Shown here in pieces: positions 5,509 through 23,867 of a stretch of 24,811 nucleotides of DNA. The stretch comes from a virus. Its lineage: Duplodnaviria; Heunggongvirae; Uroviricota; Caudoviricetes. The stretch spans positions 1 to 24,811 of IMG/VR virus record IMGVR_UViG_2537561977_000030; one strand, given 5' to 3'. Numbering within the stretch: position 1 is the first letter of the stretch; every line of letters starts with the position of its first letter. The translations under genes and the position numbers were made by a program. The notes beneath the pieces are model-generated. The model had not been told where the DNA came from. It worked only from the letters and a program-made list of their open reading frames with translations, and ran no database searches.

Positions 5509-6087
5509 TTAACTGCTCCCGTGGTTGTAACTACCGTTATAACGGGTAGTACTGTTGTAGCGAATGGCGACAGACTGATATTCCAGACTTGCCAGATGAC
5601 AGCGAGCCGGAGCAAAGGCAGCAAGCGTCTGACGTAACAGCGCCGCCTGATCATTAGTGATGGGCTGTTGAAGGATGACCCGATAGACAGCCCAGGCTTG
5701 TGCATCGCCGTGGACGAAAAGTCCGTTGTAACTGTGTTTACCGTCGTAGCCGATCTGCCCTGTCCCTTCAATCAGCTCCACTTCGCCGAAGCCAAAACGG
5801 CGGATAATTTCCCGGATTGACCACGGTGTTCCTTTATAGCGGTGTAGCTCGATAGCGGATTTGATAAGCATGCGGCGTACATCGTCAGATTCCGCCAGTT
5901 CCCAGCCATCGCCGAACAGCGAGAACTGCTCGCCCAGCCATGGCAGCGCGGAACTGTCGACGATATCGACGAGACAGACCATCAGTACGCTCAGGTCGAT
6001 GTTATCCAGCCGTCCGGCCAGTCTTCCCAGCGTTCTGAGACTGATATCACCCTCAAGCGGTGGCGGGAGTTGTAGCGCCTCAGCCAT
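5509..6087 (-). CDS. Baseplate/tail protein (P2 gpI / Mu gp48-like)
   Basis: 192-aa ORF immediately upstream of the fibre gene and overlapping the J-like gene end; position and size match. Confidence 0.7.
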   Translation of the reverse strand: MAEALQLPPPLEGDISLRTLGRLAGRLDNIDLSVLMVCLVDIVDSSALPWLGEQFSLFGDGWELAESDDVRRMLIKSAIELHRYKGTPWSIREIIRRFGFGEVELIEGTGQIGYDGKHSYNGLFVHGDAQAWAVYRVILQQPITNDQAALLRQTLAAFAPARCHLASLEYQSVAIRYNSTTRYNGSYNHGSS

Positions 6088-7183
6088 CGGACACCCCTGT
6101 CATGTTAAGAGTGATCGCCGTACAGTTTGCCCATTCGTTTTCTGCAACCACCCGCAGTGCCGGTGTCACCAGTTCAACCTGGTACACCCCGGAAACGGAC
6201 AATGCACTGATAATCTGGCTGGGGACAATATCGCGCCCCAGCGTGGCGGCACGTGATGCCACCCAGTTCTGTATGGCGCTGTTAGCGTTGTCCTTTACCG
6301 ACCTTGCATCCTGATCACGATAGATCGTAATCCTGGCTTCAATGGTGTAATCCACCTGAACAGGTGTTTTAGCCCGCACGGTATCAGTGAGTGGTCTGAC
6401 TTTTTCGTCAGAACAGAAACTCTCTACCAGAGTGAGGATACCGCTGTCCGGCAGACCAGTGCTGAGCAGCGGATACAGCTCGACAGTGCCGGGAGCGGGA
6501 GAAAGAACAGCGACGTCAACAATGCTGGGATGCGCCCCCATAGCATGAAAACGGTATGCACCACGGCTTCCGGCATTGGTGAATGACTCCGGGGCCAGCC
6601 TGATACGCTCCCGGAGCCGGTCATTGTCTTCCTGCTCTGAACCGCCAGAGCTGGCCGTCAGATTGGTCACCAGCAGGTCAACGTTATCAATCTCATCAAG
6701 CAACTGACTGACCTGCGCAGGTTGCCAGCCGTTGCCAGAGGTACCCGGTTCGGTACAGGTGGCCGGGGCATTGACCAGCAGCAATCCGGCCTTCAGCACC
6801 ACATCTGTATCGGTGGCAAAAATAATACTGTCGGAAGCGCTGACGCGGGTGCCTGCCGGGATCAGCACATCAATGGCCAGTGCCTCATCCACAGAGAACT
6901 GAAGTGTGGTGGTGGCAGGCTGCGCGGCAAGGCGGTATACACCAACCAGTTCTCCGAGGTAATCAATCATTGGCTCCCGGGAAAAGGCGACCAGATTCAG
7001 CTTCGCCGCCTCCTGTACCGCCACCCTGACCAGCATTTCGCGATAGGCCCACAGGTCTATCAGCAGACGTTCTGCCTGTGCCGGATACAACGTTTTGCCG
7101 GTATCCGCTTCATACTTCGCAATCATTTCTGCCGTGATTTTATCGGCATCGCGTTCAATAAAATCGGGTTCTGTCAGCGCCAT
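6080..7183 (-). CDS. Baseplate assembly protein J (P2 gpJ / Mu gp47-like)
   Basis: 367-aa ORF; position between W-like and I-like genes; J-family-like sequence. Confidence 0.75.
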   Translation of the reverse strand: MALTEPDFIERDADKITAEMIAKYEADTGKTLYPAQAERLLIDLWAYREMLVRVAVQEAAKLNLVAFSREPMIDYLGELVGVYRLAAQPATTTLQFSVDEALAIDVLIPAGTRVSASDSIIFATDTDVVLKAGLLLVNAPATCTEPGTSGNGWQPAQVSQLLDEIDNVDLLVTNLTASSGGSEQEDNDRLRERIRLAPESFTNAGSRGAYRFHAMGAHPSIVDVAVLSPAPGTVELYPLLSTGLPDSGILTLVESFCSDEKVRPLTDTVRAKTPVQVDYTIEARITIYRDQDARSVKDNANSAIQNWVASRAATLGRDIVPSQIISALSVSGVYQVELVTPALRVVAENEWANCTAITLNMTGVSDG

Positions 7184-7521
7184 AGCAGTTCCTGAGTACG
7201 GGGTTGTCCGTCTGAGCCTTTCCAGCTCACCCGGAGCGTAAGATGTTCGCCGTCGACGGCGGGTTTAACCGACATAAGCTGGCAGCGGGGTTCCCAGCGC
7301 CTGATGGCATCGACGGATTCGCGAACCACATGCGTAATGGCCCGGTCGACAGGCCAGTCGATATAAAGGTGCAGATTACTGCCGAACTCCGGGCGATGCG
7401 GGTCGCTGCCGCGGGGAGTCCGCAGGATGATCTGAATGGACTGCCGGATATCATCCAGCCCCCGGACGATTTCGCCGGGAGCCTGCAGAGCCGGTTGCCA
7501 GAATACTGAGGTCGTTTTCAT
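7174..7521 (-). CDS. Baseplate wedge protein W (GPW/gp25 family)
   Basis: 115 aa, with the ILRTPRGS...WEPR pattern typical of P2 gpW-like proteins. Confidence 0.75.
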   Translation of the reverse strand: MKTTSVFWQPALQAPGEIVRGLDDIRQSIQIILRTPRGSDPHRPEFGSNLHLYIDWPVDRAITHVVRESVDAIRRWEPRCQLMSVKPAVDGEHLTLRVSWKGSDGQPRTQELLWR

Positions 7522-7553
7522 GGGGGGCAGTATTGCCCCCGGAAGGGAACGCC

Positions 7554-7574
7554 GATATTAAAGGCGTTTAAGAA
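7554..7574 (-). promoter_or_regulatory. Conserved 21-bp motif, copy A (candidate activator-dependent late promoter)
   Basis: GATATTAAAGGCGTTTAAGAA on the plus strand is 19/21 identical to 13346-13366. On the minus strand it reads TTCTTAAACGCCTTTAATATC, containing a TAATAT -10-like hexamer with no good -35. Confidence 0.4.
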
Positions 7575-7577
7575 ATC

Positions 7578-8090
7578 TCAGTGCGAGTGATGATTAGAGT
7601 TCTGACCATCAGACAGCATACTACCTGTCGAGTGGGCATTACCGTTAATTTCAAGGTCGCCATTCACCGTGGTGGTGTCAGCAGTCAAATCAATGGTTTT
7701 CCCCTTCAGGCTGATACCCACTGCAACCTCGATCACCACATGCTCAATACCTCCTTTGACCGTCAGCGTATGGGTCGCGCGGTTATAACTGAACTCCGCG
7801 CCATCCGCGTATTTCGTGCCCCGGACGTTTTTATCACTGAACGGCGGTTTATCGACGTCTGAGTACACCGCGCCCAGAATGACACCATCCTCGCCGTTGG
7901 CATCGAGCAGCACCTCAACCTGCTCCCCCACGTCAGGGAGCCAGTAATCCTTGTTATCCTGGGTATTGCGCTGCAGCACGTTAAGCCAGTTTGTGCGCAG
8001 GTTATCGCATTCAGGCAGACGAACGCGGGCCTGAACCCTGTCGGCATCAACGGCACTGACCGTACCGACCTGACGGGTGACACCTGTCAT
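7578..8090 (-). CDS. Baseplate spike/assembly protein V (P2 gpV / Mu gp45-like)
   Basis: 170-aa ORF with V-family-like sequence; position between D-like and W-like genes. Confidence 0.7.
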   Translation of the reverse strand: MTGVTRQVGTVSAVDADRVQARVRLPECDNLRTNWLNVLQRNTQDNKDYWLPDVGEQVEVLLDANGEDGVILGAVYSDVDKPPFSDKNVRGTKYADGAEFSYNRATHTLTVKGGIEHVVIEVAVGISLKGKTIDLTADTTTVNGDLEINGNAHSTGSMLSDGQNSNHHSH

Positions 8091-8106
8091 TTTTTCTTCT
8101 CCTTAA

Positions 8107-9240
8107 TCACCGTCGATGTACTGCCATCCGGGTGATAAACCGTGAGTTTCTGAGTTTTTGTTTTTTCCCTCTTGTGACTGGCCCCCGTGCCACTTCCAGC
8201 TCGGTGGTGTAGCCGCTGTTACGCTCAAACGCATGGCGGGCAGTGGTTATGAGCCATGGCCCGGATAACTGTCCAAAGCCCACCAGTTCAATTTTGTTGC
8301 CTGCTGTCAGTTGAGGCGTTCCCGTCAGCGTCAGGGAGCCGTTCTGCTGATATTCGTTATGTCTGGCCAGTGCTGAATCCGCTTTAATCCGGGCACTGTC
8401 CGGGTCGCTGACGCGGCTGTTAACTTTAAGTGAGTCAGCGCTGGTAACCTTACCGCCTTTGAGCTTTTTGTCGCTTTCACGGGTACCACCATCAGCTTCG
8501 TAGACGATCAGTTTTTTACTGCTGCTTTTCTGGTGTTTTACCTTTGCAGATTTATAGACCCGGTTGATGGTGTCACGCAGGGAAAAGCGGGCCACATCCT
8601 GCGGTTTTAACTGCCTGACCGGCTCCTGACTGCGCAATGTGGCCAGATGAGAAAAAATCAACTGGTCACTGACCACTTTCACTGCATAACCATACCCGCT
8701 GGCCAGCCGGCGCAGAAAACCCACGTCGGTTTCAGCATACTGGGTCACCCGGTCGATTCTGATGGACTCAATGCTGCCCACCAGTTTCAGTCGGTGCTTT
8801 CTGGCAATCCGCCCCGCAACAGCTGCCAGCGTGGTGTTCTCAAAACCACGGCTGGATTTAGTCCGCAGAGCACTGTTAACCGAGGTGGCCACCCCACGGA
8901 TAGCGACAACGGACGCGGGCGAACTCACTTCGATCTCGTCTATTGAGAATGTACCGCAGGACAGCAGTTTCTCGCCCTGATAACCCATTTTCAGCGTCAG
9001 CGTGTCACCCTTGCCCGGATACCACTTATCCAGCCAGCGGCCATCGGTGTCGTCCAGCTCCACCTCAATGGTATCGGACTCATTTTTGATGTTATCGCTC
9101 CAGACCACACGGGTGACATAAGGCGCGATATCAGAGGTGATATTTTTCTGCAGATACCACAGCGTGAACACCGGCGTCAGCACCTCGCTGACGCCGGTTA
9201 ACGCTGATGTGGCTTGCGCAGTGCTGTTTATCTCAGCCAT
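8107..9240 (-). CDS. Tail/baseplate hub protein (P2 gpD / Mu gp44-like)
   Basis: 377 aa; C-terminal ...GNKIELVGFGQLSGPWLITTARHAFERNSGYTTELEV resembles the gpD family; position after X and U. Confidence 0.7.
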   Translation of the reverse strand: MAEINSTAQATSALTGVSEVLTPVFTLWYLQKNITSDIAPYVTRVVWSDNIKNESDTIEVELDDTDGRWLDKWYPGKGDTLTLKMGYQGEKLLSCGTFSIDEIEVSSPASVVAIRGVATSVNSALRTKSSRGFENTTLAAVAGRIARKHRLKLVGSIESIRIDRVTQYAETDVGFLRRLASGYGYAVKVVSDQLIFSHLATLRSQEPVRQLKPQDVARFSLRDTINRVYKSAKVKHQKSSSKKLIVYEADGGTRESDKKLKGGKVTSADSLKVNSRVSDPDSARIKADSALARHNEYQQNGSLTLTGTPQLTAGNKIELVGFGQLSGPWLITTARHAFERNSGYTTELEVARGPVTRGKKQKLRNSRFITRMAVHRR

Positions 9241-9443: not shown

Positions 9444-10324
9444 ACACTCCTCGTCAGTATTCTGGCGGCCATTGCACTTAATCCCGGAGACATGCGGTTG
9501 AATGCTGTGCCAGCGGCGTTAAGCTGCCCGGAAACGGTATCCAGAGCACCTGCAATATTTCTTTTGTCCACACCACTCAGCGCAGACTGCGCTTGCTGTA
9601 CATACGTGGCTGCCTCACTGGCTGTTCTGGCCAGACTGATGGCTTCGGGCATGGATTCAGAGAGTGCATTAAATGCCGGAACACTTTTCCCCAGAGCTCC
9701 GGATATATTACCCAGTCCGCTCATCAGTCCCGGCACACGGGTCAGTGCGACAACGGGGTTACCCTTCATTTTCTGCGCCACCCGAACAGCACTGATAGTG
9801 GTCTGGAGTACAGACTGCGCCTGTTTCGCACAGTTGACGCCGTTACGGACGAACTGCGCCACCCCGGAAGGCGATGGAACAGCACCAGATACGGCCCCGG
9901 CACCGGGAACCTGCCTGCGTATTGCCGGCGGTTGCAGAGGATTTTTCGGGTCACCGGTGTATTCCCGGAGAGACACGGTGGCACTGACAGCCAGCACGTT
10001 ACCGGTGCTGTCTGTCTGCTCACTGGTTGCGGTCACATCGGTAATCACGAACCAGCCGCGATAGTCACCGTTGCCGAAGACCAGTGCCAGTGCCTGATGG
10101 GCCTTCATGGCTGTTCGCACTCTCGCCAGCTCCACGTCGGGCACACAATAATGCTGATGGAAGACCAGGCTTATCTGGATTTCGTCCAGCCTGTCGCCGA
10201 CGAACTGCAGGCCGGGTTTACCCCCGATGCGGGCATGCTCCGCATAATCGACGCCGGACGTGGCCTCGAAGCCGTCCCAGTAGGTAATCAGCTCAAACTC
10301 AATATCACCCAGTACGGCAAACAT
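9440..10324 (-). CDS. Tail protein (P2 gpU-like / Mu N DNA-circulation N-terminal type)
   Basis: 294 aa; N-terminal FAVLGDIEFEL...RIGGKPGLQFVGDRLDEIQISL... resembles the gpU family. Start shares a base with the tape-measure stop. Confidence 0.55.
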   Translation of the reverse strand: MFAVLGDIEFELITYWDGFEATSGVDYAEHARIGGKPGLQFVGDRLDEIQISLVFHQHYCVPDVELARVRTAMKAHQALALVFGNGDYRGWFVITDVTATSEQTDSTGNVLAVSATVSLREYTGDPKNPLQPPAIRRQVPGAGAVSGAVPSPSGVAQFVRNGVNCAKQAQSVLQTTISAVRVAQKMKGNPVVALTRVPGLMSGLGNISGALGKSVPAFNALSESMPEAISLARTASEAATYVQQAQSALSGVDKRNIAGALDTVSGQLNAAGTAFNRMSPGLSAMAARILTRSV

Positions 10325-13134: not shown

Positions 13135-13294
13135 TCAGCGGTTCGTCCCAGTCAGCCGGGTTTTTGCTGATTTTACGTACTTGCTTCAGGTCTTTGACCG
13201 TCAGACGTTTCAGTTCAACCAGCTCAATTCTGGTGCCTGCAGCAGTGGTGAAGGGATAAGACAGCGTAAAAATATCGGATGAGGTCTGTGACAT
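12959..13294 (-). CDS. Tail assembly chaperone (P2 gpE / Mu gp41-like)
   Basis: 111-aa acidic ORF directly upstream of the tape measure; AGGAG 7 nt before the ATG. Confidence 0.65.
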   Translation of the reverse strand: MSQTSSDIFTLSYPFTTAAGTRIELVELKRLTVKDLKQVRKISKNPADWDEPLIARSTGLLPEDLDNMDLADYLQLQKRFQLVTGMGESNEGADAGAGAAGKVVQVSAGGD

Positions 13295-13345
13295 GATGTG
13301 CTCCTGTGTAAGTTCAGGGCAGTATGTCGGGAGAAGCGCGTGACG

Positions 13346-13366
13346 GATATTAAAGGAGATTAAGAA
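13346..13366 (-). promoter_or_regulatory. Conserved 21-bp motif, copy B (candidate late promoter upstream of the chaperone gene)
   Basis: GATATTAAAGGAGATTAAGAA; on the minus strand it follows the hairpin at 13371-13384 and precedes the chaperone ATG by about 50 nt. Confidence 0.4.
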
Positions 13367-13370
13367 GAAG

Positions 13371-13384
13371 GGGCCGGAGCCCCT
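13371..13384 (-). terminator. Hairpin followed by a T-rich tract on the minus strand, downstream of the 73-aa ORF
   Basis: GGGGCCGGAGCCCC has a 5-bp GC stem and is followed on the minus strand by TTCTTCTT. Confidence 0.4.
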
Positions 13385-13390
13385 GTGATG

Positions 13391-13612
13391 TCAGCAAGTG
13401 CGAAAACCCTTGCAGTTACGCAGGAAAGCGATGAGAAGCGTCTTTCCCTCCGCTTTGCCTGTGCCGGAGAACCAGTGGTCGGGCGGCTCCCATGCTTCAA
13501 TCAAATCGGCCAGTTTGCGGGCCTTTGAACGTGTGCAGTCAATCGGGTCATTGGTTTTACGGGTGTTACCCCCCGGAATATCAAGGAGGGTAAACCACGT
13601 ACCATTTGACAT
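13391..13612 (-). CDS. Hypothetical 73-aa protein between tail tube and chaperone (possible moron)
   Basis: ORF only; weak ribosome-binding site; has its own downstream hairpin; sits where this tail-module layout normally has no gene. Confidence 0.35.
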   Translation of the reverse strand: MSNGTWFTLLDIPGGNTRKTNDPIDCTRSKARKLADLIEAWEPPDHWFSGTGKAEGKTLLIAFLRNCKGFRTC

Positions 13613-17498: not shown

Positions 17499-18614
17499 TT
17501 ACAGGCAGCGTGCGACAGCAGCCTCATAGCTGATGCCTTCTTTTTTCGACAGGGCCACTGCTTTCTGATGCAGGGCCAGACGCTCAGGATCGGCTTCCGC
17601 AAACTCCGCCACATCCACCTTCACCGCGTCGCCGACACGATCCTTTGTGGCCTGTTCGGCGAAGTTCATCACCGGCTCCCCGTCGGAGAGCAATGAACGG
17701 AAGGCGGTGGCCAGCGGTGTGCGGCTTTCCCCCTCAGCAAACTCCACCGGCTTGTCGCCACCGGCGACGGCATCCAGCAGGGCAACCACCACGGAGGAGG
17801 CGCGGGGAGCCAGACGACCCTCTGCGACCAGTTTTTCTGCAAAGGCCACATTGTCCTTATGCAGTTGCTCCTGTCTGGCCTGTGCATCACGCGCATCGCG
17901 ATCAGCAGCCTGCTGCTTCAGGTGGCGGTTCTCCTCCTGAAGGGCTTCAATCTCTTCTTTTGTCATCGATGATTCCTCGTTACTTGCGGAAGACGGCACA
18001 TGGCCTGTCTCACTGAATTGCGCACCTGCTGCATCCTGCGACGGTGTGTCGCGGTACGCCTCTTCGCGCAGACTGTTGAGCTGCCATTCCGGCAGGACTT
18101 TTTCTGCCTCGTCCAGACTGAAGCGGGCGATCAGAAAATCGCGCAGCTTTCCCCACAGTGAGGCATTCGTGATGGCCTGCCAGTCGGCGAACTCCACCAC
18201 ACCTTCTTCCTGCTCACTGAAGGACACCTGTTTCAGCCCTTTGACGGAAGGTGGCTGTGCCCCGAGAAAGCCCACATGGCGCAGGTAGAGTACGCCGGGC
18301 TTCGGATTGGACGGTGAATCCGGGAGGTAAAAAGAGGCGGACACTTTTTTGAATCGTCCGTCGGTGACCATCTCAGCAAACTGCGGGTCCAGTTGGGCAG
18401 GCTCTGCCATCAGATCGACGCCGCTGAGCGACAGGGTTTTCACCCAGCCCCACGCCGGGTCTTCCGTTCTGGGATGACCAATCACGAGTGGTGCTTCATG
18501 GACGGACGGGTCATAGGCTTTCACGCAGGCGGCAAGATCGTCTGGCGTGAACGGCAGTTTTTTGCCGTGCATATCGGTATGAGTACCGGCTTTAAAAATG
18601 TGAATGGCTGACAT
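17499..18614 (-). CDS. Head maturation protease/scaffold (Mu gpI-like)
   Basis: 371 aa; an N-terminal protease-like domain and a charged coiled-coil C-terminal half (EEIEALQEENRHLKQQAADRDARDAQARQEQ) typical of scaffolds. Confidence 0.65.
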   Translation of the reverse strand: MSAIHIFKAGTHTDMHGKKLPFTPDDLAACVKAYDPSVHEAPLVIGHPRTEDPAWGWVKTLSLSGVDLMAEPAQLDPQFAEMVTDGRFKKVSASFYLPDSPSNPKPGVLYLRHVGFLGAQPPSVKGLKQVSFSEQEEGVVEFADWQAITNASLWGKLRDFLIARFSLDEAEKVLPEWQLNSLREEAYRDTPSQDAAGAQFSETGHVPSSASNEESSMTKEEIEALQEENRHLKQQAADRDARDAQARQEQLHKDNVAFAEKLVAEGRLAPRASSVVVALLDAVAGGDKPVEFAEGESRTPLATAFRSLLSDGEPVMNFAEQATKDRVGDAVKVDVAEFAEADPERLALHQKAVALSKKEGISYEAAVARCL

Positions 18615-18828
18615 TTTGCTGTCCCGCGTTATGTTGTCGGAGACAGTTTGTGAGAAATGCAGGCCCGGCGATTTTAATCTGCTTTAGAAAACATCAGGGG
18701 AGAAGGACAGGGAAAGCAATGCGGTGAACCGGAGGCGGTTATAAAACAGAGGCTGTAAAGCCTTTATAAAGGTAATACAGCCCCTCAGTTGCTGGCAATG
18801 ATAAATCACCCGCCTGAAGGGAGAAACC

Positions 18829-19287
18829 TCAGCGACGGGCCGCTGATTCAAGATGGCGGACAATGGTATCGAGGATGGGGATTACCACTTCAGGCTGTAG
18901 TTCTCCATCCCCCGTCACCGGCAGGAACGGGCGGGCCGGAAGTTCAACGGACTCATTACGCCCCGTTTTACCCCCGAACTGGTGAATGGCACCGTAAACA
19001 ACGTTGGTCCCCACAACAGCCTGCCGGTCGTCATGGTCGGTTGATACTGACCCCATCAGACGCCCGGTATCCTGCAGTGTCTGTCCGTCACGTTCTTCCG
19101 CTGCCAGCGAGGGCATCCACCCCGGACGCCCCTCATCAAGAAAGTTAAACTGTGTTTCCGCCAGCAGGGTTCCGGCGATTTTGCGCATCGCGGGCTCCAT
19201 GTCTGTGGCAGCAAGATCCAGCGCACGGAGGCTCCGGCGCAGGGAGTCATCGTTAATGGAGATACTGACCAGATTGTCGGAAGCCAT
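18829..19287 (-). CDS. Virion morphogenesis protein (Mu G-like)
   Basis: 152-aa ORF directly downstream of the F-like gene; size and position match Mu G. Confidence 0.6.
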   Translation of the reverse strand: MASDNLVSISINDDSLRRSLRALDLAATDMEPAMRKIAGTLLAETQFNFLDEGRPGWMPSLAAEERDGQTLQDTGRLMGSVSTDHDDRQAVVGTNVVYGAIHQFGGKTGRNESVELPARPFLPVTGDGELQPEVVIPILDTIVRHLESAARR

Positions 19288-19289
19288 TG

Positions 19290-20111
19290 TTATCCTCTCA
19301 GTTCCTGTTGTGCCAGTGGCTGAAGCGTACCCTGATAGCGGGCAAGGTCGGGACGGTATGCTGCCCCCGGTGCATAAGACCAGCCGACGTCGGTGGTCAC
19401 CTTCGTGGTGCCGGTATTAAAGGTGGCCACGTTCCGCATTTCGCCGGTTTTCTCTGAGACCAGTTTCAGTTCATGGCCCATGGCAGAGCCGGAGCTGATA
19501 ACCTTCAGGCCACGGGCACGTACATCCGCCGCACTCAGGGCAATCACACTACAGCGGCAGCGCCAGCCGTTCGGCGGGTAAAATGCCTGCCAGAACGGGT
19601 CATCCCAGCGCAGCACCAGACCATGCAGCGCCAGATGGCTCCTGCGGGTATGGCTGTCGTTGATGCCGGTATACATCCAGTACGGCCTGTCGTCGACGTT
19701 TTCCATCTGTTCCGCCCAACGACCGGCGCTGTAGAGTACGGACATATTGGTGCGAAAGATGGTATCGAGCCGCCACGAACTGCCCTGCTGAATGGTGACC
19801 GGCTCACCCGTTACCGGGTCAGTCGTGTCACTCGGTCCCCACCATCCCCTGCGCTTCAGCGCCGGCTCCAGCTCCTGCCGGAACCAGCGATCGGTTTTTC
19901 CTTCATCGACAGCCTGCTGCAGTGTCCCACGAATATCTTCCAGGATATCCAGGCGGGTCACTTTAGCGACGGTAAAGGCGCGGGCATGGGCTTCCTGCCA
20001 CATTTCTTCCCAGTCCCAGGTAATCTGATACCCTTTGGACTTCAGGTAGCTGATTGCCCGCTTCGGGGGAAGCGTCATGCAGTACGCCAGTTCAGCCGTT
20101 GTCACGCTCAT
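19290..20111 (-). CDS. Head morphogenesis protein (Mu F / SPP1 gp7 family)
   Basis: F-family-like sequence. Likely ATG at 20111 with a GGGGG ribosome-binding site; the track start at 20138 is TTG. Confidence 0.75.
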   Translation of the reverse strand: MSVTTAELAYCMTLPPKRAISYLKSKGYQITWDWEEMWQEAHARAFTVAKVTRLDILEDIRGTLQQAVDEGKTDRWFRQELEPALKRRGWWGPSDTTDPVTGEPVTIQQGSSWRLDTIFRTNMSVLYSAGRWAEQMENVDDRPYWMYTGINDSHTRRSHLALHGLVLRWDDPFWQAFYPPNGWRCRCSVIALSAADVRARGLKVISSGSAMGHELKLVSEKTGEMRNVATFNTGTTKVTTDVGWSYAPGAAYRPDLARYQGTLQPLAQQELRG

Positions 20112-21108
20112 GCAGACGCCCCCAGATATTTGCCACAAAGAGAATGCGGGCCAGCCGTTCCTGCAGATCGTCCGTGTTCATCTGAGGGTAGAGCTCCGCC
20201 AGTTCGCCCAGCAGCTCAGACGGGTTAACCCCATTTTCGACCCGCTTAAACAGAGGTGCCAGGACGGGTTCCAGCGTGCCATTTAACGCGCCTCCGTTCA
20301 TCAGAATGTCCAGCGCGTCGTCAAGCTGCTGCTGAGCCTGAATATCGGCATCAATCGCCTCGGCAAATGACAGCGGCAACATGTTCTTCTCGCGTTCTGA
20401 CGGTGGTGTCTCGTCAATATCGCCGTCCTGCAGCTGGTACTCACGCTTAAAGTATTGCGGGGTCAGACGCAGACCCGCCCGGGTGAGTTTTTCGTCGCGG
20501 GTGGCACGGGTGTCATCAATGGCCTCCTGTTCCCACATGGCCCAGACCGGACACGGCACATCGCCGAAGTTCAGGGTGACCACCGTTCTGATGACCTGAT
20601 TCACTGCCGCCTGAATGATGTCCGCATCCGCATCGCGGATATCAGCCGTTACCTCCAGCCCGGCCTGTGCAGAGGCCTTGTTACTGTTCGCTTCCGTGGT
20701 CTGATTCTGACCGAGTAATGCAATGGAGATCTCACTGCGTGACAGCGTGATCAGCTCGCGGAATACCTCGCTGCTGTCCGCCTTGCCATCCGCGGCTTTG
20801 AGTTCGATGCTGCTGTCATCGGGGATGGCGGCCACCGCGTCCTCCACCATCTGCTCCATGGAGTCCAGCAGTTTTTCAATCTCTGCATCATTTGCACCCC
20901 TCGGGTGCTTACCGATCACCCACGGGGAGCCAAACTTTTCGGCAAAGCGGAGCCAGAATTTCATCCCGCCTTTCTTGAAGGCGACCGGCCAGAAGCACAT
21001 GGACAGATCCGGAAAACCGTAAGGATTGTCATAGGATGCATCCTGTGCCGGCACCACGAATTTTGACGGTGACAACAGCTCACCCTCCACACCCGCATCA
21101 CGTGCCCG
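20092..21108 (-). pseudogene. Portal protein (Mu gp29 / DUF935-type), N-terminally truncated remnant
   Basis: About 335 codons where DUF935 portals run about 500. An in-frame stop lies immediately upstream at 21109-21111, and there is no credible start or ribosome-binding site. Confidence 0.65.
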
Positions 21109-21145
21109 TCATGGAATTCTCCCGCCCTGACAGGGAGGACTCGCA

Positions 21146-21418
21146 ATGATTACCCCACAGGAAGCACGACAGCGCACCCGAACCCTTGTTGAACACTATG
21201 TCAACGAGTGTGAATACCGCGACCTCACCGATGTGAAGCACGTCCTGACGGCGCTAATCAGCATGGCCGCTCAGGCCATTGTGGCGACCAACGGAAAGGC
21301 GGCTGCCCTGCAGGTACTGGTGAACACACTCACCCACACGGCAGAGCATGAGGTGCCGTACCGGATGGAAACCACTGCAGAAGGCGGCCTGCACATCACC
21401 GTCAGCCGGAAGCACTGA
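21146..21418 (+). CDS. Hypothetical 90-aa protein
   Basis: ATG preceded by GGGAGG; first gene of a plus-strand operon. Confidence 0.55.
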   Translation: MITPQEARQRTRTLVEHYVNECEYRDLTDVKHVLTALISMAAQAIVATNGKAAALQVLVNTLTHTAEHEVPYRMETTAEGGLHITVSRKH

Positions 21419-21427
21419 GGGCGCGGC

Positions 21428-21724
21428 ATGACACGAAACACCGAACTCACCCGCACCGCCCTCTACCGTCTGGCCCTGCAGCGTTTCGGGCCGGACGCAC
21501 AGGCCCTGAAACTGACAGAAGAGGCCGCTGAACTGGCGGCCAGTGCTGCCCGCAATCTGAACGGACAGGGCAGCGAAAGTGACCTCGCGGCAGAGCTGGC
21601 AGACGTGGAAATCATGACAGAGCAACTGCGCCTTCAGGGGATGGACCGGCTGATTGACTTCCACAAACAGAAAAAACTGGAACGTCTGGCTGCACGACTG
21701 GGCGTGATTTACACGAACGAGTAA
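21428..21724 (+). CDS. MazG-like nucleotide pyrophosphohydrolase (small, phage type)
   Basis: 98 aa with an EEAAELAASAA...ELADVEIM arrangement matching the EExxE...ExxD metal-binding pattern of the MazG/HisE-like fold. Confidence 0.55.
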   Translation: MTRNTELTRTALYRLALQRFGPDAQALKLTEEAAELAASAARNLNGQGSESDLAAELADVEIMTEQLRLQGMDRLIDFHKQKKLERLAARLGVIYTNE

Positions 21725-21738
21725 CCGGGAGGCATTCA

Positions 21739-21955
21739 ATGGCTGACATACTCAGGGAAATCACCGCATGGACACTGATTCTTACTGGCCTGGCGACATG
21801 CCTCAGTACGGGGGGCAGCCCTGGCTGCCCTGCTGATGCACATAACAACACAGTGGTTATGGGAAAAGCTTAAAGCAGCATACAGCCTGAAAGAGCTGTC
21901 CGACGCTGTCCGGGCATGGAAACGGCAGAAAAATACCGGAGATACTGAACAATGA
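21739..21955 (+). pseudogene. Small membrane-protein gene apparently frameshifted at a G6 run
   Basis: ATG at 21739 with a GGGAGG ribosome-binding site reads MADILREITAWTLILTGLA... The downstream frame, which ends in a TGA overlapping the next gene's ATG (ATGA), is reached by removing one G from 21810-21815. Confidence 0.35.
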
Positions 21956-22635
21956 CAGATCAGAATAAACACATTGAGAAACTGAAAAAGTTGCTGGCGC
22001 TGGCTGCATCCGGCAACCCGCACGAGGCCGCTCTTGCACTGCGCCGTGCCCGTAAACTGATGGATGTTCACGGCATCACACATTCCGACATAGCCATGAG
22101 TGATATTGATGAAACCATCAGTCACTACTGGCCGACAGGCAGCCTCCGTCCACCGCGCTACATGCCAGGCCTGATGAACATCATCCGCGAGGCATTTGGT
22201 GTTAACTCCATCATTCACCCCGGCACATATCCGGGTGTGGGGTTCTACGGCAACCGGGAACGGGCCGCACTGGCTGCGTACACCTGGGAGGTGCTGGCCC
22301 GCCAGTTGAAAAAGGCGCGTCAGCAATATATCAGCGCACAGAACAAAAGAATAAAAACTGCCACCCGTACCAGCCGTGGTGACCAGTTTGCTGAAGGCTG
22401 GGTGCTGGCCGTTATCAGTGAAATACAGTCCTTCGCCCTGACCGATGACGAACGTGAACTGATGCAGCAGTGGCTGGAACATAAATACCCGCAAACGCAA
22501 ACCACCAGGGCGCGTAAACCGGGAAGAAGTCGCAATGGCGACGCCTCGCGCTATGCGGGGTTTCGTGAAGGGCAGAACGTCAGACTGCACCGCCCGGTCA
22601 GTGGGCAGGAACAACAGAAACTGGAGGCCAGATGA
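21952..22635 (+). CDS. DUF2786-like domain protein
   Basis: 227 aa; N-terminal KHIEKLKKLLALAASGNPHEAALALRRARKLM motif as recalled for DUF2786; ATGA start overlap with the upstream gene. Confidence 0.5.
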   Translation: MTDQNKHIEKLKKLLALAASGNPHEAALALRRARKLMDVHGITHSDIAMSDIDETISHYWPTGSLRPPRYMPGLMNIIREAFGVNSIIHPGTYPGVGFYGNRERAALAAYTWEVLARQLKKARQQYISAQNKRIKTATRTSRGDQFAEGWVLAVISEIQSFALTDDERELMQQWLEHKYPQTQTTRARKPGRSRNGDASRYAGFREGQNVRLHRPVSGQEQQKLEAR

Positions 22636-22862
22636 TTACGCTATCAGGTAACAGCCGGAAATTAAAAGCCTGCCGAATATCTGCCAGATACCTTTTTGCC
22701 CGCGCCTTTTTTAAGAACGTCAGGCCGGGGATCACAATTGGTGTTATTGCCGGACGCGAACAGGTTGAAAAATACATGTCAGGTGCATGGTGGAATAACG
22801 ACCCTGTCATTGCTGCCCGTAATATTCATATCAGTTGGGGGGATATTCAGAATGACTGCTGA
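22632..22862 (+). CDS. Hypothetical 76-aa protein
   Basis: ATG overlaps the upstream stop (ATGA). An alternative frame (22696-23067) overlaps, so the assignment is uncertain. Confidence 0.35.
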   Translation: MITLSGNSRKLKACRISARYLFARAFFKNVRPGITIGVIAGREQVEKYMSGAWWNNDPVIAARNIHISWGDIQNDC

Positions 22863-23067
22863 ATCTGTTGTATGTGCCCTGTTCTGGTATTGTTTTGTCG
22901 GTTGGTGTACTGCTGAACTGCACCGCCGTTCAGGGTTTTATTCACGTTACAGTGGTGCCAGCTACTGGATTAGCTGGTCGGTGATGTTCCTGTGCTGGCC
23001 TGTGGCGCTTCCTTTATATGTCGATTATATCGGTGGCGCAGGTAAAAGGAGCAACGATGATGACTAA
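22852..23067 (+). CDS. Small membrane protein (71 aa, two predicted transmembrane segments)
   Basis: ATG at 22852; hydrophobic stretches VVCALFWYCFVGW and WISWSVMFLCWPVALPL. Confidence 0.4.
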   Translation: MTAESVVCALFWYCFVGWCTAELHRRSGFYSRYSGASYWISWSVMFLCWPVALPLYVDYIGGAGKRSNDDD

Positions 23068-23509
23068 ACAACGTCTTATCCAGCTCATTCATATTGCCCG
23101 TAATGAACTGGGTATGGATGAAGACACCTACCGCCAGATGTTACAGGGGCTGACCGGTAAAGCCTCAACCAAAGGAATGGATACCACACAACTAAACTGC
23201 GTGCTGGAATCCATGAAAAGGAAAGGCTTTCGCGTTAAGCCTGCCGGAAAAGCCAGCTCCGGTTTACCGCTGGATAACCATCCGCAGTCCAGGAAAATCC
23301 GTGCGCTATGGCTTGAAATGGCTGCTGCCGGCATTGTTCGTGACCGTTCAGAAAATGCATTAGCGCGGTGGATCAAGCGGGAAACGGGCATCAGCGCCCT
23401 GCGCTGGCTCAATACTGAACAGGCAAGCAGTGTTATTGAGAAACTGAAGAAGTGGCAGCACAGAGCTGCGGGAGTAAAACATGAGCGACCTGAATCAGTT
23501 TCGAAGTAA
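23057..23509 (+). CDS. gemA: GemA-like protein (Mu gp16 family, DUF1018)
   Basis: MMTKQRLIQLIHIARNELGMDEDTYRQMLQGLTGKAS...MKRKGF...SRKIRALWLEMAAAGIVRDRSENALARWIKRETGISALRWL matches the gp16 family pattern; AAAGGAG before the ATG. Confidence 0.75.
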   Translation: MMTKQRLIQLIHIARNELGMDEDTYRQMLQGLTGKASTKGMDTTQLNCVLESMKRKGFRVKPAGKASSGLPLDNHPQSRKIRALWLEMAAAGIVRDRSENALARWIKRETGISALRWLNTEQASSVIEKLKKWQHRAAGVKHERPESVSK

Positions 23510-23867
23510 AGGGCCGGAACTCCTGGTGGAGCTGGCACAGCATACCTCTGAGACCGTTCGCGAGATTATTGATATTGAGCCCGAAGTTGCCGACCAGATT
23601 GGTCAGGCCGTCGCGAACCGCATGATGCAGGTCTGGGGCGGGCAAAACGTTTATTTTCCTATGGGGATGAGATGGAAGATAAGCCAGCGTGACCGTGAAA
23701 TCTATGAGGCGTTTAACGGACGTAACCACCACGAACTGTCCCGCAGATTCAGGGTTTCAGTTCCCTGGATTTACAACCTGGTGAAGCGCGTAAGAAAGGA
23801 AGAAATCAGCCGGTTGCAGGGGCAGTTATTCGAAGACGATGATGAACCGGATGACAGCCGGGATTAA
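23481..23867 (+). CDS. mor: Mor/C-family transcriptional activator (Mu middle operon regulator-like)
   Basis: 128 aa; C-terminal GGQNVYFPMGMRWKISQRDREIYEAFNGRNHHELSRRFRVSVPWIYNLVKRVRK matches the Mor/C helix-turn-helix region; directly follows the gemA-like gene, as in Mu. Confidence 0.8.
   Translation: MSDLNQFRSKGPELLVELAQHTSETVREIIDIEPEVADQIGQAVANRMMQVWGGQNVYFPMGMRWKISQRDREIYEAFNGRNHHELSRRFRVSVPWIYNLVKRVRKEEISRLQGQLFEDDDEPDDSRD

Follow-up and report, generated by a model that had tools for sequence, protein, structure and literature searches.

The 56-nt spacer between the V-like and W-like baseplate genes of this prophage probably contains a late promoter of the phage Mu C/Mor type (P_W), from which W would be transcribed as a leaderless mRNA. 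The GC-rich hairpin found directly in front of the W start codon would then be built from the core of the promoter itself and be absent from P_W transcripts. We put the probability of this reading at roughly 60%. Below, we present the evidence for the promoter, for the position of the W start and for the conservation of the stem, and then weigh alternative functions for the inverted repeat.

W is encoded in a defective BcepMu-like prophage

The window, meaning the whole 24,811-nt stretch that was analysed, is an enterobacterial prophage of the BcepMu-like (Mu-like, contractile-tail) kind, and the minus strand encodes its late genes. The records nearest to it are those of Klebsiella phage KP12 and Escherichia phage PhiKM (genus Bcepmuvirus). 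The prophage is defective; compared with PhiKM it lacks about 13.8 kb, with a junction near 21100, and the missing material includes the transposase, the repressor, the lysis genes, the terminase and the N-terminus of the portal protein. The locus is carried by 636 of 5,426 complete E. coli genomes (~12%) and occurs also in Salmonella, Pectobacterium, Photorhabdus, Burkholderia and Pseudomonas.

The late genes surrounding the hairpin, all on the minus strand, are a hub/gpD-like gene (8107-9240), the V-like baseplate spike gene (7578-8090), the W-like baseplate wedge gene (7174-7521; GPW_gp25 family, W/gp25-like, 115 aa), a J-like gene (6080-7183) and an I-like gene (5509-6087). The V stop codon lies 56 nt before the W ATG. 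A gene for a Mor/C-family late transcription activator (Pfam Mor, E = 5e-41) is found on the plus strand at 23481-23867, adjoining GemA. Its product shares 85% identity with the PhiKM protein that carries the annotation 'positive regulator of late transcription C', and BcepMu and Pseudomonas phage Komp_PAO1_1 likewise have annotated activator genes.

The ATG at 7521 is the sole in-frame ATG, GTG or TTG upstream of the conserved WQPAL motif in the window, and its counterparts in relatives keep a fixed distance from the promoter (see below); the true W start is thus not further downstream, a possibility that the earlier note had left standing. As that note had also observed, W lacks a Shine-Dalgarno (SD) sequence: none was found at a functional spacing before the gene, and the only anti-SD match upstream, GGGGG in the 5' arm of the hairpin, is 13 nt away from the AUG. 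In most of the other well-defined late genes, such a match ends 4-9 nt from the start.

A stable hairpin abuts the W start codon

On the coding (minus) strand, the stem-loop reads GGGGGCA-AUAC-UGCCCCC, with its 5' arm at 7540-7534, its loop at 7533-7530 and its 3' arm at 7529-7523, in the context ...CCCUUCC GGGGGCA AUAC UGCCCCC C AUG. One unpaired C (7522) separates the 3' arm from the W ATG (7521-7519). The hairpin had originally been placed at 7522-7540, ending one nucleotide before the ATG, and this description is right to within one base (stem 7523-7540). The stem also survives folding in context, being present in both the minimum free energy (MFE) and centroid structures of a 121-nt segment, in which the AUG of W lies outside it. 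The isolated stem has a predicted energy of -13.6 kcal/mol, and the 26 nt preceding the W ATG reach -14.7 kcal/mol versus -4.0 in shuffles (p ~0.001).

Perfect 7-bp inverted repeats are common in the window, with ~13 distinct examples (17 stem/loop hits listed) versus ~10 hits expected; GC-rich examples number ~6 versus 1.6 expected. The significance of the W stem therefore derives from its position and conservation and not from the rarity of a bare 7-bp inverted repeat. The hairpin is single-copy in the window and has no Rfam match at E <= 1, which rules out a REP-like repeat or a known RNA family. A second hairpin in the spacer, AACGCC/GGCGTT (7568-7548), was dropped from consideration as it is not conserved among relatives.

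The V-W spacer matches Mu-type late promoters

Late promoters of phage Mu, of which there are four C-dependent copies per genome, have a -10 element, no -35 element and a 16-bp imperfect dyad centred at -43.5 (PMC2582627). The V-W spacer follows the same plan on the minus strand. An imperfect dyad, TTAA-ACGCCT-TTAA (7558-7571), the predicted site of the Mor/C-family activator, is centred 43.5 nt upstream of the A of the W ATG. Its right half-site is followed after 23 nt by a recognizable predicted -10 hexamer, AATACT (7529-7534), with no usable -35, and then by a GC-rich discriminator, GCCCCCC (7522-7528). The hexamer corresponds to the loop plus closing pair of the hairpin, and the discriminator to the 3' arm plus one C. 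By this geometry, the A of the W ATG (7519-7521) is the predicted +1, or +2 should RNA polymerase begin one base earlier, at the C. A promoter candidate in the spacer had been suggested before, with the hairpin just downstream of it; the candidate holds up, but the stem is not downstream of the promoter and instead spans approximately -20 to -2 of its core.

To count further instances, we scanned for the pattern [CTG]TAA-N6-TTAA followed after exactly 23 nt by NAnnnT, with expectations taken from dinucleotide shuffles. The late strand of the window contains three matches (7571, 13363 and 18687), all of them intergenic and situated before the W, tail-chaperone and head protease genes, respectively. 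The second of these, P_tail (13321-13363, minus), consists of TTAA-TCTCCT-TTAA, 23 nt, CATACT and then GCCC, and has a normal leader in which an AGGAG SD precedes the ATG at 13294. Its spacer and that between V and W share TTCTTAA-N3-CCTTTAATATC, then 19 nt, then (A/C)ATACTGCCC. The third, P_head (18645-18687, minus), consists of CTAA-AGCAGA-TTAA, 23 nt and CAAACT, with a predicted leader of ~24 nt to the ATG at 18614. We had first placed this third copy at CCTTTATAAAG near 18780, which was wrong; the actual P_head motif is CTAAAGCAGATTAA at 18687. Another resemblance, CCTTTAATACC at 19423, lies inside a gene, has no -10 at the right distance and is a chance match.

Counted on both strands, the pattern occurs 4, 6 and 4 times in the window, PhiKM and Komp_PAO1_1 versus 0.075, 0.06 and 0.005 expected; the extra opposite-strand matches are mostly the palindromic dyad read in reverse. 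PhiKM and Komp_PAO1_1 each have four late-strand sites, before their lysis, head, tail and W genes, and BcepMu has four equivalent promoter sites. The window has three, and its lysis region is deleted. The -10 hexamers of these late promoters are weak (2-4 of 6 matches). A generic sigma-70 scan of 6500-9000, which needs both hexamers, found no promoter, as expected for one that depends on an activator. By every sequence-level criterion tested, the V-W spacer fits a Mu-type C/Mor-dependent late promoter, with activator dependence being a prediction.

The late units of this phage are separated by hairpins, as the one next to P_tail shows: a terminator-like hairpin, AGGGGC-TCCG-GCCCCT followed by TCTTCTT (13369-13384, minus), abuts the P_tail activator site. 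Another terminator-like hairpin (18763-18750) lies before P_head.

The W start codon is locked to the promoter

We compared 148 W loci, collected from IMG/VR and from one genome per species, which reduce to 76 distinct upstream sequences. They sample Escherichia, Erwinia, Pantoea, Serratia, Xenorhabdus, Photorhabdus, Pectobacterium, Dickeya, Brenneria and others, together with a Salmonella-like group, Burkholderia, Pseudomonas, Paraburkholderia, Aquirhabdus and Lysobacter. For each locus, the start was chosen as the in-frame ATG nearest WQPAL; an in-frame ATG is present in every relative analysed, which is partly by construction, as loci with no such candidate had been dropped. In 64 of the 76, the chosen ATG is the sole ATG, GTG or TTG candidate.

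All 76 distinct sequences have a -10-like hexamer of the form NAnnnT 6-8 nt before this ATG, at a spacing of 6 nt (62 sequences), 7 nt (10) or 8 nt (4). The hexamers vary (AATACT, GATACT, GACAAT, GAAAAT, CAACAT, CATTAT, CATGAT, CAAGAT, CAGCAT, GATCAT, GACACT, TACACT and CACGCT), with A2 and T6 constant. The distance from the right half-site (TTAA) to the ATG is 34-37 nt in 69 of the 76. In most relatives, the dyad centre lies 42.5 nt from the A of the ATG and the hexamer 6 nt from the ATG; the corresponding values in the window are 43.5 and 7 nt, which would allow a 1-nt leader. The number of residues preceding the conserved Trp is 7, 9, 10, 11, 13 or 14 across the same set. Thus the coding N-terminus of W drifts and its ATG stays locked to the promoter.

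In many lineages, an inserted or unrelated gene or a strong terminator, and not V, lies directly upstream of the motif, and W must therefore have its own promoter there. The site just upstream of the W promoter is an insertion hot spot for extra genes, including one with a nuclease domain.

A comparable arrangement is found at the head gene of BcepMu, where an in-frame ATG at 18862 lies 7 nt after the P_head hexamer GATGAT, at the predicted +1. The product read from this ATG, MNAKPLHIFRAGT, aligns with MSAIHIFKAGT of the window, and the annotated start falls within the -10. Among published 5'-end data, we found one related set, dRNA-seq of uninduced B. cenocepacia J2315, which carries BcepMu; it lists no start at the W homologue and is neither for nor against the leaderless model.

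The stem is conserved and its arms covary

All 43 distinct close variants in IMG/VR keep the core GGGGCA...UGCC. Changes to the core in these enteric variants are either C-to-U in the 3' arm or A-to-G in the closing pair, and both kinds keep G-U pairs. Among the 76 distinct sequences, 61 have a stem of at least 5 bp at the exact position. The stem is not universal, as it is lacking or reduced to 3-4 bp in Lonsdalea and in some Pseudomonas and Salmonella-like loci. In more distant lineages, other stems occupy the same place, ending 0-2 nt before the ATG: GGGGGC/GCCCCC with a 7-nt loop in Pectobacterium, GGGGA/UCCCC and GGAC/GUCC in Photorhabdus, GAGGGC/GCCCUC in Lelliottia, GGGAC/GUCCC in Dryocola, GCGGC/GCCGC in the BcepMu group, GCCGC/GCGGC in a Pseudomonas and UGCUCC/GGGGCA in Aquirhabdus.

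In a MAFFT alignment of 33 diverse representatives, 86.9% of cells are paired, versus 81.3% in shuffles (none of 500 reached the observed value) and 45-63% in slid controls. Five of the seven stem pairs change on both sides, giving a covariation score of 0.282 versus 0.190. Pairing figures were similar in an alignment fitted to a covariance model. It did not correct the register of the Pectobacterium stems and of some Salmonella-like ones, which is shifted by one base, and the pair counts of both alignments therefore understate pairing. Judged by these comparisons, the complementarity of the arms is under selection. Stem strength differs little with the upstream gene (-10.9 versus -9.1 kcal/mol, by a crude classifier of whether V is directly upstream).

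An inverted repeat of this kind also surrounds the -10 of other promoters in the family. In BcepMu, P_lys reads ATGCCGTC-CAAGAT-GACGGCAT and P_head reads CGCCC-GATGAT-GGGCG; in Komp_PAO1_1, the -10 of P_lys is held in a 9-bp stem, CACGCCGCC-GATCAT-GGCGGCGTG, then TTCGTTTC. The start codons at the BcepMu and Komp_PAO1_1 lysis promoters are more than 20 nt away, which indicates that the repeat accompanies the promoter core, wherever the start codon may be; its contact with the start codon of W would follow simply from W starting at +1. Moreover, the arm sequences differ among promoters of a single phage, making a shared protein operator unlikely. In the window itself, no stem surrounds the -10 of P_tail or of P_head. 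At the window P_head, 18646-18640 is predicted to pair with the SD region in the MFE fold; the z-score of the region is only -1.15.

A model for W expression

We propose that a dimer of the phage Mor-family activator binds the TTAA-N6-TTAA dyad at 7571-7558 and enables sigma-70 RNA polymerase to use the weak -10 AATACT (7534-7529) with no -35. Transcription would begin at the A of the W ATG or one base earlier, yielding a leaderless mRNA or one with a 1-nt leader, and W would be translated by ribosomes that bind the 5'-terminal AUG directly. The proposed leaderless mRNA would account for the lack of an SD before W, and does so better than masking of a ribosome-binding site. In E. coli, leaderless translation usually has a low efficiency. 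As the prophage is defective, the element may not be in use in this copy.

Relative to the predicted +1 at the A of the ATG, the 5' arm of the stem would occupy approximately -20 to -14, the loop and closing pair would constitute the -10, and the 3' arm would serve as discriminator. The stem would thus exist as RNA only in transcripts reading through from the upstream tail genes on the V side, and otherwise as DNA. It had been suggested that the stem occludes W initiation. This idea does not carry over to P_W RNA, which is predicted to start within 1-2 nt of the AUG and hence to lack the stem; occlusion could apply only to read-through RNA from V. The difference in arms within one phage, together with the bias toward sense-strand wobble pairs, makes such read-through RNA the most natural site for the stem to act. 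There, it would be a boundary element that keeps the internal W start and the stray GGGGG closed, and it might also provide the upstream RNA with a protected 3' end, leaving W output dependent on P_W.

This boundary role is our best guess and the weakest part of the analysis. Its context is provided by the terminator-like hairpins before P_tail and P_head and by Pseudomonas relatives, which have a hairpin inside the P_W spacer. Against it, the stem has no U-tract, its strength shows no clear dependence on what lies upstream, and a translational block seems redundant in read-through RNA that has no SD anyway. The excess of wobble pairs could, moreover, reflect a looser constraint on the discriminator instead of selection for RNA pairing. 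A DNA-level role is possible as well, with the stem tuning melting, fixing the start site or limiting basal activity.

Alternative roles for the inverted repeat

The DNA-level role may be taken further: promoter and leaderless start would be as proposed above, and the inverted repeat would act solely as DNA, through GC clamps, through a cruciform or hairpin in which the -10 is exposed or concealed, by fixing the start on the A, or by keeping activator-independent basal firing low. Indeed, the -10 forms the centre of the repeat, whose end falls at about -1, at P_W in many genera, at P_lys of BcepMu and Komp_PAO1_1 and at P_head of BcepMu. The repeat is thereby tied to the promoter core, and the variation in its arms within one phage speaks for structure over a shared protein operator. 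We also count in favour of a DNA-level role that Mu C is reported to distort or unwind promoter DNA (PMC4461284). However, the repeat is absent from the Mu late promoters and from P_tail and P_head of the window, GC clamps have no need of complementarity, and arms of 5-7 bp extrude poorly as cruciforms. Moreover, the changes that are tolerated are mostly of the sense-strand G-U type, which are A-C mismatches on the other strand. On balance, we regard a purely DNA-level function as unlikely. A specific form of it, in which the hairpin-loop -10 is a working part of the promoter, strikes us as very unlikely: here a structured element (a hairpin, a cruciform or a single-stranded replication intermediate) would take part in Mor-activated late transcription of BcepMu-like phages, coupling it to supercoiling or replication and setting the start precisely on the AUG of leaderless genes.

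If transcription instead started upstream of 7540, for example with TAATAT (7560-7555) as the -10, the stem would lie in the 5' untranslated region (UTR) of the W mRNA and could occlude the start, a block that a factor, coupling or processing would have to lift. In favour of this, a stable stem lies right next to the AUG, its conservation includes wobble and compensatory changes on the sense strand, and the TAATAT inside the motif is itself -10-like. There is also a precedent in the com-mom system of phage Mu, where a start-masking hairpin is reportedly opened by a protein; Mu com is annotated 'translational regulator of Mom'. However, the motif containing TAATAT is an NTAA-N6-TTAA dyad with the geometry of a Mu C site, it is always followed 23 nt downstream by a second -10-like hexamer, and in Pseudomonas and Burkholderia relatives it has the sequence GATTAAAAG, without the T6 that is critical in a -10. 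The loops always fit NAnnnT even though they are lineage-specific, and a plain loop would have no reason to do so. The same repeat, furthermore, flanks the -10 of lysis promoters whose start codons are more than 20 nt off. As for masking, the stem does not include the AUG, and W has no SD that it could mask. A translational operator hairpin that sequesters SD or AUG is likewise at odds with the unpaired AUG, the missing SD and a stem upstream of the predicted start site. We consider a start-masking hairpin in the W leader to be quite unlikely.

We hold similarly low expectations for a stem that is chiefly a transcript-end element of the upstream tail operon, acting as a weak terminator with no U-tract, a pause site or a barrier to 3' exonucleases, and fitted into the next promoter for lack of room in a 56-nt spacer. 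Each of the other late promoters does have a terminator-like hairpin before it (at 13384-13369 and at 18763-18750), Pseudomonas relatives have such a hairpin plus UUUC within the P_W spacer, and in Komp_PAO1_1 the stem holding the P_lys -10 is followed by UUCGUUUC. By contrast, C-AUGAAAAC and not a U-tract comes after the enteric stem, a terminator scan of 6500-9000 did not call the stem, and the stem is kept in lineages with a different upstream gene. An intrinsic terminator in the strict sense is set aside on the same grounds, the tail after the stem being C-AUGAAAACGACC.

Finally, it is highly improbable that the complementarity has no function and that a G-rich spacer and a C-rich discriminator pair by chance: although perfect 7-bp repeats are frequent in the window, the BcepMu and several Pseudomonas versions are no stronger than composition-matched shuffles, and ATACTGCCC is common to P_tail, which has no 5' arm, covariation of the arms is seen across genera, in at least seven stem sequences that each stop 0-2 nt short of the ATG, the pairing of the arms exceeds that of shuffled and slid controls, and the majority of relatives have a stem of at least 5 bp at the exact position (61 of 76).

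Comparison with known systems

With a predicted leaderless start and a stem made from promoter sequence, P_W as we interpret it shares features with several well-studied regulatory regions. Like the C-dependent promoters of Mu (Plys, PI, PP and Pmom), it has a -10 with no -35 and a dyad for a dimer of the Mor/C family near -43, in a genome that contains the activator gene. The right half-site and hexamer are 23 nt apart here versus 24 nt in Mu, and the half-sites are TTAA/TTAA versus TTAT/ATAA. Pmom, for instance, reads TTAT-GCCCCA-ATAA, 24 nt, TAAGAT, and Plys and PI read ATAA, 24 nt, and TAGACT or CAAACT. Mu promoters have no inverted repeat around the -10 and none has a start codon at +1, whereas P_W has both (the +1 being predicted). 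In addition, Mu has no promoter between its V-like and W-like genes (gp45 and gp46), which overlap; here, the predicted promoter lies between the two genes.

A second parallel is P_V of phage P2. In the P2 record, the start site of the V operon is on the first base of the V coding sequence, and the classical examples of leaderless genes in E. coli come from lambda and P2 (PMC4633059). As at P_V, and also at lambda cI when transcribed from PRM, the first gene of the baseplate/tail-fibre operon is predicted here to begin at the transcription start. P_V and P_W are both late promoters with no SD downstream and both depend on an activator (by prediction in our case). In P2, the activators are zinc-finger proteins of the Ogr/Delta type with a site further upstream (annotated 10239-10266), as opposed to the Mor/C family here; the leaderless gene is V in P2, whereas here W comes first and V belongs to the upstream unit. 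We saw no stem around the -10 of P2 P_V.

The stem recalls two further kinds of element. Start-masking hairpins, namely those of IS10/Tn10 'fold-back inhibition' and Mu com-mom, silence read-through RNA. As in fold-back inhibition, the 5' arm at W is upstream of the gene's own predicted start site and the full stem would form only in read-through RNA; unlike fold-back hairpins, both arms are upstream of the start, and neither AUG nor SD is inside the stem. A layout resembling fold-back is predicted at P_head of the window, through the pairing of 18646-18640 with the SD region, and at P_lys of PhiKM (TGTCTCC...GGAGACA). Like the intrinsic terminators at operon boundaries, the W element is a GC-rich stem of 6-7 bp with a tetraloop at the end of the upstream cistron, but it lacks a U-tract. 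In the literature that was searchable, which is incomplete, we found no description of the late promoters of BcepMu or of leaderless genes or a leaderless W in Mu-like phages.

Significance

The element in front of W goes beyond a generic intergenic hairpin, in that it joins a gene that is promoter-locked and, we infer, leaderless across the family to a covarying stem around the -10. If confirmed, this would define a promoter-locked leaderless baseplate operon common to BcepMu-like phages, prophages and tail-like elements, and enterobacteria, in which few leaderless genes are known, would gain a widespread natural example. It would likewise provide a sequence rule for Mor/C-type late promoters (NTAA-N6-TTAA, 23 nt, -10) and allow start-codon annotations to be corrected, for example that of BcepMu gp32. 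It would also offer a tractable case in which to ask why a -10 element is kept within a covarying stem.

Insertions and hairpins around the late promoters

The interval between the stop codon of the spike gene V and the activator site of P_W, the predicted Mor/C-type promoter before the baseplate wedge gene W, is an insertion hot spot, which carries several unrelated inserts among relatives (L001, L012, L063, L074, L077 and L117-L119). Across these inserts, the promoter motif and the stem around its -10 hexamer always remain adjoining W. The product of the insert in E. coli GABEEC10 (L001, 1206-2081) is 291 aa long and contains a nuclease domain of the REase_DpnII-MboI family (Pfam, E = 4e-47). 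PADLOC labels it 'Aga_Helical-REase', and the insert may be a defence gene.

Hairpins also occur within the spacer of P_W. In Pseudomonas phages and prophages (L089, L139, L142 and L147-L149), the sequence about 20-45 nt ahead of the W ATG can form a GC hairpin flanked by A- and U-rich stretches, such as AAAAGCCGCCGCCCGGCGGCUUUC. Placed after the activator site and ahead of the -10 hexamer, it has the look of a nested intrinsic terminator. For the window's own V-W spacer, the MFE fold predicts a second hairpin (AACGCC-UUUAAUAUC-GGCGUU, 7548-7568, minus strand), within which the dyad's right half-site lies. Relatives do not conserve its 3' arm, so this hairpin is probably incidental.

A compact terminator-promoter module is found at P_tail (13321-13384, minus strand), after the tail tube gene and a small ORF (13391-13612). 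Here, the hairpin AGGGGC-TCCG-GCCCCT and the following TCTTCTT pass directly into the TTAA dyad of the promoter.

Predicted start sites at head and lysis genes

Stems are also predicted across the start sites of P_head in the window (18619-18646, minus strand, CUGUCUC...GGGACAG) and of P_lys in PhiKM (L086, about 32290-32320, TGTCTCC...GGAGACA). In both, the bases just 5' of the predicted start site are predicted to pair with the Shine-Dalgarno region; the fold z-score, for the P_head region, is weak (-1.15). On this model, Shine-Dalgarno masking would be confined to read-through RNA.

In BcepMu, the promoter and start region of the head protease gene gp32 (L153, 18812-18865) places the annotated start codon (18850) within the predicted -10 hexamer GATGAT. 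An in-frame ATG at 18862 coincides with the predicted +1, and the N-terminus read from it matches the window homologue. The annotated start thus looks like a mis-annotation, and gp32 looks like a second, predicted leaderless gene in this family.

PhiKM carries an additional Mor-type site at 30859 (minus strand; CTAA-ACCACA-TTAA, 23 nt, CATCAT), whose position upstream of a DNA adenine methylase gene recalls the C-dependent mom promoter of Mu. Moreover, its P_lys dyad is palindromic, and when read on the opposite strand (32261, minus strand) it is likewise followed at the proper spacing by a -10-like hexamer, facing a divergent gene.

Deletion and inverted repeats in the window prophage

The window prophage is defective, with ~13.8 kb absent relative to PhiKM: gam, transposase A/B, the repressor, the Dam methylase, lysis genes, terminase and the portal N-terminus. 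Within 20092-23867, a junction near 21100-21108 joins a truncated portal ORF, matching only positions 116-336 of the Portal_Mu profile, to mid-early genes of the opposite strand. The prophage still has Mor, GemA and its head and tail genes.

Long inverted repeats (1610-2021/2398-2810 and 633-684/3670-3721) flank the tail-fibre/assembly region, in pairs 54-168 nt long and 73-78% complementary. They recall the G segment of Mu and, by this resemblance, mark the region as a candidate invertible host-range segment.
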